From Promethearchaeota archaeon (GTDB lineage Archaea > Asgardarchaeota > Lokiarchaeia > Sigyniarchaeales > SOKP01): a stretch of 32,463 bases of DNA. The notes below the pieces were generated by a model, which was not told the DNA's origin, did not search any database, and saw nothing but the letters and a program-made list of their open reading frames with translations. This document shows, one piece after another, positions 9,860 to 31,378 of this stretch (the stretch's first letter is position 1; every line of letters begins with the position of its first letter). The stretch is taken from NCBI GenBank assembly GCA_004524535.1, contig SDNY01000032.1:1-32463 (forward strand), written 5' to 3'. Position numbers and translations under genes: made by a program.

Positions 9860-12241
9860 TTAGCCTTCTCGGCACAATCTTTTCAGTAAGGTAGGATCAA
9901 TTATCTCTTTTGGTTCCCAATTTTTACTTTTCAAATATTCCTGTATTTCAGACTTCAAATTGATTGGAATGTCAGCTTCAACGCGAATGTATTTTTCTAA
10001 ATCGGTTGGAAGGTCAACGCCTTTATATTTTCGTTCTAAGTCAATCCAATGAGATAATTTTATCATACGTCCTTTGGAATTATCAGCTGGCCTCAAACAC
10101 ATTTTAGCAACTAAACAAATTGCCTGTTCGATAGATTCGGCGGTTGTTAATAGGTGTTCAGGACAAGGACTAACTAAATGGTCGCCAGTGCCATCTCGTG
10201 CATTCCATACTTTCCATGTATCCTCATCATCAGTTCTACCTATATACATACGTCTGTATTCAGCTGAATGGGGTCCACATACTGCTGGAATACCCATTCC
10301 ATTACAACTACTTGCTATACTTGCTGCTTTTTGCGACATTGCGCCCCAGGCAACTCCACAAGCTCCAACTCGATTTAAGATATAATCCGCTATTTCTTCA
10401 TAATTACCTCTTAAAGGACGTCGAGCAAATATATTTGCAACTTTAATTGCCGCACCATTTATATGTGGATTTGAGACACATGAGCCTACATTAACTAACC
10501 CTCCTCGGTCGAAATCACCAGGATATCTATCATATAATGTCTTACCTTCTTCGTCTTTTACAAGACCTATATCCATAGCACCACAGCCAGACACTACAAC
10601 AATATAATTCCTATTGCAGAATTCTTCAGCCATTGTATATAATTCTTGGATTTCTTTTCCATAATTGGCACAACCGATAATGGCTACAATTCCAGGAATT
10701 TCTCCTAAGACGATCGGAGCCCCTACATTTCGAATTTCAGTATCCTGAATGGGACCACGCCCTACTCTTAGGTTGAATTTTTCGTTTCTAATCTTTTCAC
10801 GCCCTGCATACATAATTAGAGTGAGAGGTGAAACATCTTTCATGCATTCGGCTTCACATCTACCACAATCTAAGCATGCATCAAATGTGTCTGATAATAT
10901 GGAAAAATCTCCGTCCTTTGCAGCATTTACACCTGCAACTAGTGGAAGATCATTAGGACAATTTCTCTGGCAATTTCCGCAGCCATTACATCTCATTGCC
11001 ATATCTATACATCCTTGCTCATCTGGAACTGCGCTTTTACTCTTTCTAATTGGCCTTACCTTTATTGCCGTTTCTACTGCAACTTGCCCCGCTTTTACGG
11101 GATCTAAAATTAATACACCTTTAGCTTTTCCACTAACTAAATCGTCTACAATTTCATCAACCGGATCATCAGTTCTATCTGGTAATCCATTCATATTTTT
11201 CTCATTTGAAGCGATAAATGGTGCATTTACTAGTTGCGCTTGTTCAAAGCTTCTCAAGTTAACGCATTGCTCATCGACCATCACTACATCTGCTAACCCA
11301 GAACGAATGAAATGCATTTGACGGGCGAGAGAACCAACAACTTTAGCTCCACTGTAATATCTTGTTAAATCCAAAGCAGTACAACAGATTGCTCCTACAT
11401 CAACTTTGCTTTCATATCCCTTCTCCCGCATATAATCAACTAATTCGATTCCAGGTGCTACATTATGGCCAATCATTAAAATTGTAGCCTTATTTTCCGT
11501 ATCTAAAGTACCCATTCCCAATTCAACAATAGGTACATCAGGATCTCCTACAGGAAAACCATATGCAGCAATTTGAACGGCATCAGCTATTTCCATTCCA
11601 ACAGCATCACATAATCCCGCTAAGAAACTTTTTGATTCATAATCTAAATAACTTGATTCTTGACCAGTATGACCCGCCGCAAGAAGATGAGTAATATTGA
11701 ATTGAACCCATTTCATTGCTTCTTCCAAATCTTCTAACGTTTCTGGTTTCATCCCTACTATCAATCGTGTACATGGCATTTCTACAGCAATATTGTTTCC
11801 AAAATTTATTGGGACATTTCCGTATTTTTCTTTGAGCCAGTGAAGCAAGTGATCTCCGTGAGCGCTGTGGCACGAGGCCCCGATACAGCACGCAATCTCT
11901 ACTATCTTTGCACATGCCGTTTCTATATTAATACCACAAGCCCCTGTTCTTCCCTTTGAGAGGTTGCATTTACCGAAGGTACAAAGGCAACACATATCAC
12001 AAATTTACCCAATTATTCCAACAGAATAATTGTTTGGCATGTAATATGGCTTGTACCTCTCCATTAATTTGAAAAACCAATTTCGCAATGTTGGAATATG
12101 GGGCATTGGAGTTGGACCCATTGGCTCCCATTCAGTCTCGTCTCCGAAGCTTACTTTTCCTGTCGTTAATTCGAAGCCCTTAATACTTCCTAGTGGGCCA
12201 GAGTAAGAATCTATTTTTATTTTTGCGCCTTTTTTACTCAT
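9860..12241 (-). CDS. cdhA: Acetyl-CoA decarbonylase/synthase complex subunit alpha (CO dehydrogenase), interrupted by a 30-nt insertion; predicted join(12034..12241,9860..12003), 783 aa
   Basis: Upstream ORF carries WEPMGPTPMP..LRNW..RYKPYYMP. Downstream ORF carries CDMCCLCTFGKC, GHNV, AICCTA, VDEQC, two ferredoxin motifs, GSCVSN and WGAMSQKA. Both ORFs are in the same frame. Confidence 0.92.
12004..12033 (-). other. Putative 30-nt bulge-helix-bulge mRNA intron in cdhA
   Basis: mRNA sense: CAUAUUACA UGCC AA^A CAAUUAUUC UGUUG GAAUAAUUG GGUA AA^U U UGUGAUAUG. Removal gives AUG CCA AUU UGU GAU (M P I C D) and deletes an in-frame UAA. Confidence 0.8.
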
Positions 12242-23119: not shown

Positions 23120-23821
23120 ATGGCATTAGATGCAGCTGGAATGATCTTATTAGTATCATTTTTTATAATATGGGGAGTCTTCCTGGCATGGGATTTCTTT
23201 CGTAGAATTTCATGAATCTCTCATGAAGTACGCAAAGGAGAAAAATATGGCTTCCTAGCTTACATATTGGCTGTAATTCCAGTTAATATGTTATGGGGCT
23301 ACGGTTTTAATATTTTAGGGGTTTATATTGTCCTTTTTGTATTATGGATAATTTGTCTTTTTCGTGATTTAATATTAGTATATGGCAAAACAAAAGAATA
23401 TGATGATATTTTGCTATTTTTAGGAATTGCAATTCTAGTTCAAGTAATTTTAACAGGAATATTGCCATATATGAATGAGCAAATGCAAAGTAATTGTGTG
23501 GCAGCCTGGGTCTTTTGGTTTCCTGATGTTTATAATCCAAATACAAATGCTATAAAAAGTTGGGTTAATGCTAACTATCTATTAGGATTTAGAGTAGCAG
23601 CAACAGGCATGGTAATATTAGCTATTTTACCAATGATCTTAGATTTATACTACACGGAAGAACATGTTAATCTTTTAGCAATAATTTTTATCGATTGTAT
23701 TTTTGTGGCCCCTTTTCTCTGGCTGGCATACGTTTGGATGGGAGGCATCGGTTGGCCATTGACTTTCTTGTTTGCGGTGCTTTTATTTATAGTTTTATTA
23801 CTATTAACAAGGGAGAGATAA
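23120..23821 (+). CDS. Multi-pass membrane protein interrupted by a 30-nt insertion; predicted join(23120..23205,23236..23821), 223 aa
   Basis: ATG at 23120 gives MALDAAGMILLVSFFIIWGVFLAWDFFRR (one TM helix), in frame with the hydrophobic ORF 23267..23821. The two are separated only by a TGA at 23213..23215 inside a hairpin. Confidence 0.75.
23206..23235 (+). other. Putative 30-nt relaxed BHB/BHL mRNA intron
   Basis: UCGU AG^A AUUUCAUGA AUCUC UCAUGAAGU ACGC AA^A GGAG: 9-bp stem, 5-nt loop, central helix with 3 of 4 pairs. Removal gives F F R R G E K Y G. Confidence 0.62.
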
Positions 23822-30772: not shown

Positions 30773-31378
30773 TTGATGGAAAAAAAGGAAAACATTCAGA
30801 TTTCGCTTGATGATATAAACGAAGATGATATACCAGCCAAGATTCCAGCTAAATTTATTAATTCGAGAATTGTTATTTTTAATCCTCTTTATGCCTCTTA
30901 CTTATATGTGAAGGAAAAGTTTTTTGGCTCTCCCCTTGGAATAAGTAAGCCCCGTTTAGAATATTTCCATAAACCTTCAGAGTTGTCTGTTATTGAGGCT
31001 TATTACCTATTAGAAAAAGGTAAGATTACTATTTTTGATGTTAAAAGAGAGAAGGATCTTAATGCTAAGGAATTTTTTGAAATTGCCAAACAAATACACC
31101 ATAAATTTGAGGAAAAATACGTAATTTATAAAGATTTAAGAGAAAAAGGATATATTCCTCGACCAGGGTTGAAATTTGGAGCAGATTTTGTAGTATATAA
31201 GAAAGGCCCCGGATTAGAACACTCTCCCTTCATTGTACACGTATTACCTCATGATTCTAAAATTAGTGCAATTGATATGGTCAGAGCTGGCAGATTAGCT
31301 ACATCAGTTAGAAAAAAATTTGTTATCGCAAATCCCCAAACTATAAACTACTATTTCTTTACGTGGTTTAAGCCGTAA
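30773..31378 (+). CDS. endA: tRNA splicing (intron) endonuclease, catalytic subunit
   Basis: ELSVIEAYYL, VIYKDLREKGY, GLKFGADFVVY (Tyr), GPGLEHS (His) and RLATSVRKK (Lys): catalytic triad intact. Confidence 0.95.
   Translation: MMEKKENIQISLDDINEDDIPAKIPAKFINSRIVIFNPLYASYLYVKEKFFGSPLGISKPRLEYFHKPSELSVIEAYYLLEKGKITIFDVKREKDLNAKEFFEIAKQIHHKFEEKYVIYKDLREKGYIPRPGLKFGADFVVYKKGPGLEHSPFIVHVLPHDSKISAIDMVRAGRLATSVRKKFVIANPQTINYYFFTWFKP

Follow-up and report, generated by a model that had tools for sequence, protein, structure and literature searches.

A putative 30-nt bulge-helix-bulge mini-intron in the mRNA of an Asgard membrane-protein gene and a proposed class of such inserts in one archaeal family

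In this report we analyse a 30-nucleotide (nt) insert in a membrane-protein gene of Promethearchaeota archaeon, an Asgard archaeon, located upstream of radA on contig SDNY01000032.1 (assembly GCA_004524535.1, forward strand, positions 1 to 32,463; this whole stretch of 32,463 nt is called the window). Judged by its orthologues and by similar inserts in other genes, the insert at 23206..23235 (+ strand) is likely a mini-intron of the bulge-helix-bulge (BHB) type, spliced out of mRNA by the tRNA-intron lyase EndA and the ligase RtcB, and one of a lineage-wide class of 28-32-nt inserts. It is also probable that one Asgard family carries a population of uniform BHB mini-introns of about 30 nt in many genes, including that for the largest subunit of RNA polymerase and that for ribosomal protein L11, and that these were gained repeatedly at 'hot' sites and long kept. 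Organisms of this lineage probably have to splice many mRNAs. Removal at the RNA level, by EndA and RtcB and in the productive 30-nt register, is what we infer from the comparisons described below.

The host gene runs on the + strand from ATG 23120 to a stop codon at 23819-21 in one frame, and the sole interruption of that frame (23120..23821) is a TGA at 23213-15. A preliminary description of this DNA had claimed that the frame opened by ATG 23120 is blocked by a TGA within a hairpin, and this codon, like all the other coordinates given there and both alternative registers of the hairpin, was located correctly in the sequence. Putative exon 1 (23120..23205, + strand) holds the start codon and the first transmembrane helix, extends to the predicted 5' splice site after the 2nd nucleotide of a bulge AGA, and is in frame with exon 2 (23236..23821, + strand), which comprises the rest of the gene through the stop codon. 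With 23206..23235 taken out (or 23207..23236, which is equivalent since there is an A on either side), a frame of 223 codons remains that reads WDFFRRGEKYGFLAY; from unspliced mRNA, translation would stop at the TGA after 31 codons. The product is a conserved multi-pass membrane protein for which Pfam and NCBIfam gave no family match. The window is AT-rich, with a G+C content of about 30%; a search of it with Rfam and ARAGORN found nothing, and blastn-short of the insert against the genome of this organism (below, G000) gave no second copy. The mini-insert class is structural and not a repeat family.

For the comparison, 40 related genomes were searched with the read-through protein. The gene was matched in 38 of them, and a stop codon within it occurs only in G000 and its closest relative, G008, where the open frame has 234 codons with one TGA and the two proteins are 95% identical in amino acids (aa). 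Insert and flanks are identical in these two genomes, the exons differ at several positions, and in both the ATG and the reading frame of exon 1 are preserved, as is a helix that aligns with those of the orthologues. In G002 and G005, of the same genus and 86% identical in aa, the frame is uninterrupted and exactly 10 codons shorter, the preliminary description having expected about 10 fewer residues in intact orthologues; their DNA, ...TTT AGA AGA GGC GAG AAA..., encodes WDFFRRGEKYGFLAY with no stop. The indel is therefore exactly 30 nt, and the product of register A, which had been proposed as the productive one, matches G002 and G005 letter for letter. A loop of the same length with a sense codon at the place of the TGA, which would have pointed to a simple nonsense mutation or readthrough, was not seen; the whole 10-codon block is missing from both orthologues. 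The 177-aa versions of the protein in public protein sets (P0004, P0006, P0009, P0012; 79-93% identical) start at an internal Met just past the insert site; probably the same insert, present in other lineages as well, has cut these gene calls short. A search of the public protein data found no 223-aa protein closer than 82% and gives no sign either way on spliced transcripts.

The intron hairpin (helix h', 23207..23229, + strand) consists of ATTTCATGA / ATCTC / TCATGAAGT, that is 9 bp including one U-G and a 5-nt loop AUCUC. Next to it stands the central helix, whose exon strand UCGU (23200..23203, + strand) is paired with the intron strand ACGC (23230..23233, + strand) at three of four positions, the outer one being a U-C mismatch. 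The 5' bulge AGA (23204..23206, + strand) has its predicted cut at 23205/23206 and the 3' bulge AAA (23234..23236, + strand) at 23235/23236, and an outer exon-exon helix between 23194-23200 and 23237-23243 can form 7 pairs, of which 2 are G-U. The whole BHB-like motif (23194..23243, + strand) has an energy of -12.5 kcal/mol against a minimum free energy (MFE) of -14.0 kcal/mol; in the lowest-energy double-bulge folds C23233 joins the 3' bulge, which then has 4 nt. For the 58-nt stretch around the insert, shuffled sequences gave -8.4 +/- 2.4 kcal/mol (z = -2.4, 3 of 200 shuffles as good), so that the local fold alone is only moderately unusual, and it is the comparative evidence that appears decisive for the insert being more than chance.

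The caveat of the preliminary description that a second register competes with the first is real. Register B (23207..23234, 28 nt) has a perfect CGUA/UACG central helix and a double-bulge fold of -12.4 kcal/mol, 0.1 kcal/mol from that of register A, and its removal shifts the frame to a nearby stop. Structure alone does not tell which register is used; the orthologues alone tell which one is productive. A strict canonical hBHBh' motif exists at 23194..23243 only in the unproductive 28-nt register, since the productive one has 3/4 central pairs and a 3' bulge of 3-4 nt; sister introns such as those of L11 and cdhA do show the strict motif. By a relaxed definition (HBh'/hBH-like: at least one well-formed bulge beside the central helix plus helix h', with splice sites within the bulges) the productive register qualifies, having the 5' bulge AGA, the 9-bp h' and 3 central pairs. 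As to the functional junction, cuts as predicted at 23205|23236 would give FFRR|GEKY, the same as in the intron-less G002 and G005. That competing registers could tune expression, as was also suggested, is pure speculation.

In the proposed sequence of events, exon-1 UCGU would pair with intron ACGC in the transcript and the 9-bp intron hairpin would form, leaving the bulges AGA and AAA. Heteromeric EndA would cut each bulge between its 2nd and 3rd nucleotide, and RtcB would join the exons to ...FFRR|GEKY..., giving the 223-aa protein.

The insert has many counterparts in the same genome. The G000 genome was scanned for four exon nucleotides followed by a bulge of 3 nt, a hairpin, a 4-nt stretch able to pair with the exon nucleotides and a second bulge, with cuts placed after the 2nd nucleotide of each bulge and with each hit required to join a broken open reading frame (ORF). 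A simpler scan, for pairs of long ORFs separated by a single stop, had returned 1126 hits with too much noise to be of use, and the first strict BHB-plus-ORF scan, with 934 hits, needed more filters. With stems of any length, 62 ORF-joining hits were obtained at insert length 30 and 25-78 at other multiple-of-3 lengths (25-49 at 24-42, rising with length). When a stem of at least 9 bp was required, 19 hits remained at length 30 (23-nt hairpins) versus 0-10 at the other multiple-of-3 lengths. The length-30 scan was repeated without the central-helix requirement: at least 3/4 central pairs were present in 24 of 43 ORF-joining hairpins (56%) and 4/4 in 7, whereas for all 5109 23-nt hairpins of the genome the values were 18.8% for at least 3/4, 15.9% for 3/4 and 2.9% for 4/4. 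The central helix is thus specific to the class and not a filter artefact. None of the 19 ORF-joining hairpins with at most 2 central pairs resembled a real interrupted gene, as judged by eye only.

At least 14 supported inserts of 30-32 nt were recognised in G000, all of one common layout, in which 4 nt of exon are followed by a bulge of 3 nt, a hairpin of some 23 nt, a 4-nt segment that pairs with the exon nucleotides, and an A-rich bulge. In the strong candidates the 23-nt hairpin usually has 9 bp and a 5-nt loop, a format found in 13 other 30-nt inserts. Hosts include rpoA1, rpl11, argG, cdhA, cdhD and the RNase HII gene. Their removal brings conserved motifs back together, and the restored junctions read SGGLD|TS in ArgG, GHFGH|IELA in RpoA', DEAGR|GPVIGP in RNase HII, PPIGPAV|GPTGIN in L11, YYMP|ICDMCC in cdhA and WMM|WNW in an acetoacetyl-CoA-synthetase-like protein. 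Pfam or NCBIfam matches span the inserts in ArgG, CdhD, Rpb1 domain 1, AMP-binding, RNase HII, AFOR_N, L11, HMG-CoA synthase and 2-oxoacid:ferredoxin oxidoreductase (OFOR) gamma. At two 32-nt inserts the match of a DeoC-family aldolase ends at 220 of 229 profile positions and that of a B12-binding domain begins at 12 of 121. The rpoA1 gene of G000 (contig C17, L086) carries two inserts in its first ~80 codons, one canonical of 30 nt and one of 31 nt.

Three unverified inserts stand outside this count (C101 i21653, C104 i6343 and C180 i17522, the last with a Pfam match that reaches only as far as the insert). Candidates on C44, C45, C28, C37, C39, C61, C140, C148, C173, C3, C51 and C98 (i18873) were rejected as probably false, being low-complexity sequence or a gene end abutting the next start, and a 31-nt candidate on C120 was rejected as well, its thiolase match running from profile position 29 and its putative exon 1 being unlike the missing part. 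About 10 of 15 supported G000 inserts lie within the first ~75 codons, a 5' bias, and the loop pattern A-N-N-U-C is frequent (AUCUC in the 23206..23235 insert, in C180 and in L11 of G004).

In the window, the only credible inserts are that at 23206..23235 and one in cdhA (9860..12241, - strand). The latter, a putative 30-nt mini-intron at 12004..12033 (- strand), falls at YYMP|ICDMCC, has a 4-bp central helix UGCC/GGUA and contains an in-frame TAA. The preliminary description had ascribed the same layout to both inserts of the window, and this layout indeed recurs in cdhA and in at least 12 other G000 genes. The cdhA insert is missing from 10 intron-less cdhA copies, including that of G008 (96% aa identity), while G007 cdhA has a 32-nt insert at the G000 site with the same GGGUAA ending; this pattern reflects either a recent gain or loss, or independent gains.

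The same 40 genomes were also searched with five other interrupted genes and the loci were aligned to intron-less references, which gave 32 alignment gaps of 20-60 nt. Four of these, in poorly aligned termini, were dropped (RNase HII of G011, reference position 600; L11 of G008, position 11; L11 of G005 and G002, position 70), leaving 28 inserts with lengths of 28 (x2), 29 (x1), 30 (x19), 31 (x5) and 32 nt (x1). As 9 of the 28 shift the frame, readthrough or recoding is excluded as a general explanation. To each insert a junction test was applied, in which, of 19 registers, the one with most BHB pairs was chosen and checked for being one of those whose protein agrees best with that of the intron-less orthologue. 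In 26 of 28 inserts the BHB-chosen register was one of the protein-optimal ones, where chance would give 2.84. One miss is the 31-nt rpoA1 insert of G000; the other, the 30-nt rpoA1 insert of the same gene, is due to a wrong reference frame in the script, and its BHB register gives GHFGH|IELARPVIHVGY, identical with the intron-less reference. The central helix has 4/4 pairs in 20 of 27 inserts and 3/4 in 7; AAA forms the 3' bulge in 19 of 27, and among 5' bulges AGA is the most frequent, with 11 of 27. At many junctions a codon is split, the stop is found at different places in different inserts, and TAA, TAG and TGA all occur. By script, an in-frame stop was found in 18 of 19 frame-neutral 30-nt inserts; for the 19th (RNase HII of G013), whose stops are listed in another scan, the frame call is probably wrong. 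Such near-universal stops possibly reflect selection against translating unspliced mRNA, or may be a side effect of the 3' end being rich in A.

Several inserts have been retained across species, and their pairing with them. At one site of L11 the insert has 30 nt in G000, G008 and G004 and 28 nt with an 8-bp stem in G005 and G002, and it is absent in G001, G017, G018, G013 and others. RNAalifold run unguided on the 5 L11 copies returned the outer exon-exon helix, the 4-bp central helix, the two 3-nt bulges and the hairpin, with three pairs preserved by two-sided changes; in the central helix, one such change is G:C to A:U. An RNase HII insert is common to G000, G003, G018 and G017 (three genera), with a stem pair changed from U:A to C:G, and in ArgG the insert of G011 differs from those of G000 and G008 by A:U to G:C at the closing pair. 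The insert-bearing genomes all belong to family f1 of the order; none was seen in 16 genomes of families f2-f4 for the six genes examined.

In different genera, unrelated inserts were also observed at identical or adjacent codons within highly conserved motifs, a pattern of insertion 'hot spots'. The RNase HII site (L100-L113) is filled by unrelated insert sequences in G013, G011 and G023, and the RpoA' site (L086-L093) likewise in G021, G006 and G010. In cdhA, three insertion sites lie within ~8 codons (G000 and G007; G010 and G019; G016 and G007; L065, L077-L080). L11 of G005 and G002 (L045/L046) has a divergent N-terminus and, about 36 nt upstream of its 28-nt intron, an extra 36-nt alignment gap, which suggests a possible second rpl11 insert in these two genomes.

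The presumed splicing enzymes are encoded by G000. An EndA subunit gene lies in the window itself at 30773..31378 (+ strand; PF01974, 107.9 bits; TIGR00324, 118 bits), and the genome has two EndA paralogues, with PF01974 matches at C100:31106-31336 and C84:30615-30863, as well as RtcB (PF01139, 561 bits). As far as the available text of PMC5829648 goes, Asgard EndA is an (alpha-beta)2-type enzyme that carries the L1 loop, which is linked to relaxed-BHB cleavage and broad specificity; the cut between the 2nd and 3rd bulge nucleotides is described in the accessible part of PMC2738675. One EndA gene thus shares the window with two of its presumed mRNA substrates. RtcB (C101:22508-23815) is found directly downstream of a helix-turn-helix protein gene with the candidate 30-nt insert i21653, for which no domain match verifies the insert (C101:21487-23815).

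In some tRNA genes of G000 there are BHB introns of 28-29 nt whose geometry is that of the mRNA inserts. ARAGORN intron calls on this genome are unreliable and serve as leads only. Only 18-22 tRNA genes were detectable in this 99%-complete genome, which suggests that many are interrupted to such a degree that ARAGORN and the Rfam tRNA model miss them. Both observations fit the intron-rich Asgard tRNA genes, with repeated independent gains where the motif can form, that are reported in the portions available to us of bioRxiv 10.64898/2026.10.13.758758 and PMC11291895.

Several facts weigh against the reading of the 23206..23235 insert as a spliced mini-intron. Its central helix is incomplete, the MFE fold collapses the 3' bulge to one nucleotide, and with an isoenergetic 28-nt register at hand the enzyme might cut unproductively. 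The copies in G000 and G008 are identical, so that this insert itself provides no covariation, and the host protein is without known family or function. For the class as a whole, many insert copies are orthologous and the related genomes are not independent samples, and the 31-nt rpoA1 insert, with a 7-bp hairpin and a loop AUUUC, does not fit the canonical BHB geometry. One alternative is that EndA cuts mostly or only in the 28-nt register 23207..23234, the gene being silenced or down-tuned by the frameshift and the 30-nt product minor or absent. Register B has 4/4 central pairs against 3/4 at equal energy, and genuine 28-nt introns with 8-bp stems are known from L11 of G005 and G002. Nevertheless, both exons are open and conserved in G000 and G008, and the core enzyme cdhA has an alternative 28-nt register too. 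Central helices with 3/4 pairs are also found in 5 of 25 other homology-defined inserts (the two copies of the present insert excluded), among them the RNase HII intron kept across 3 genera; being common among sister introns, they place the productive register within the class norm, and we hold predominant cutting in the 28-nt register to be unlikely. A gene killed by a recent insertion (pseudogene), or one expressed only as a downstream ORF of 177-184 aa from an internal start and lacking the first helix, would agree with a host of no known function, with the public gene calls of 177 aa and with the confinement of the insert to G000 and G008 among the 40 genomes. It does not agree well with an exon 1 whose ATG, frame and helix are kept in two species that differ elsewhere. 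Moreover, inserts of identical design occur in the essential genes rpoA1, rpl11 and RNase HII and are therefore not inactivating lesions, and they persist across species with compensatory changes; gene death or an internal start is accordingly given little credence.

The other explanations concern the way in which the insert would be passed over or removed. Bypass elements, such as those of T4 gene 60 and the yeast mitochondrial byps, are short hairpin-bearing coding gaps with a stop that are missing from orthologues, and a hairpin with a stop in a coding gap resembles them. Ribosomal bypass of this type is nonetheless highly improbable here, and so is readthrough by selenocysteine (Sec) or another code. 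Unlike bypass elements, the Asgard inserts have no matching take-off and landing codons (0 of 27; here CGT vs AAA in the cut register and AGA vs AAA by codon), the position and identity of the stop vary, many junctions split a codon, and a covarying exon-intron helix has no role in hopping. Readthrough would add foreign residues, the orthologues lacking the whole 10-codon block, and Sec or stop reassignment was ruled out on this ground and on the presence of TAA, TAG and TGA among the inserts. Finally, the insert might be removed at the RNA level by an as yet unknown hairpin-recognising nuclease and a ligase, and not by EndA. The uniform size of 28-32 nt and the recurring A-N-N-U-C loops could mean a dedicated factor, one insert is off the BHB geometry, and hairpin-triggered, RtcB-dependent excision exists in animals (SOS splicing, according to the accessible part of PMC12779559). 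Against this, 26 of 28 junctions obey the EndA rule, tRNA introns share geometry and size with the inserts, and both EndA and RtcB are encoded, so we regard a different nuclease as very doubtful and EndA/RtcB splicing as the preferred reading.

Among the known systems closest to the inserts, archaeal tRNA BHB introns have the same geometry, cut rule and size range (as judged on G000 tRNAs). They differ in that the mRNA inserts draw the exon half of the motif from coding sequence, where frame and stops matter and splicing must precede translation. HAC1 and XBP1 are spliced independently of the spliceosome, by IRE1 together with tRNA ligase or RtcB. In SOS splicing, as the consulted part of PMC12779559 has it, transposons are removed from animal mRNAs in an RtcB-dependent manner. 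In these eukaryotic systems, likewise, a short structure-defined mRNA segment is removed with RtcB-type ligation, but the nuclease (IRE1 or unknown) and the motif are different, and their role is regulatory or defensive and not constitutive in housekeeping genes. In protein-coding genes of archaea, the BHB intron of cbf5 pre-mRNA (Crenarchaeota: Desulfurococcales and Sulfolobales) is alike in cut rule, presumed heteromeric EndA and lineage-specific gain and loss, as far as the available text of PMC2738675 goes. In contrast to cbf5, the inserts described here are found in 14 or more genes of a single genome and, among relatives, in 6 gene families, all in Asgard hosts, and are narrow in size (28-32 nt) with a stereotyped 9-bp/5-nt hairpin. 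In the openly accessible literature searched, BHB introns in archaeal protein-coding genes were found only for cbf5 and no Asgard mRNA mini-introns were found, the Asgard introns reported there being those of tRNA and rRNA, group I and group II.

BHB introns in protein-coding genes, an exception in archaea as far as the literature found goes, would now form a class that counts 14 or more genes in a single genome and, when genera are compared, several sites of insertion per gene, in the lineage that gave rise to eukaryotes. If this is true, the expression of core genes would depend on genome-wide mRNA splicing by EndA and RtcB, and in-frame stops, present in nearly all of the frame-neutral introns, would guard against translating unspliced RNA. 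Part of the fragmentation of Asgard gene models would be explained and could be mended in silico by a simple rule; if splicing takes place, annotation would be systematically wrong at the insert loci, where essential genes look like pseudogenes. Splicing of this kind would also offer a natural system for intron gain at defined sites. It would mean that mRNA processing is ordered before translation in these cells, which bears directly on hypotheses that tie the origin of the nucleus to introns, and that the closest prokaryotic relatives of eukaryotes would already meet, and solve, the problem of splicing before translation.

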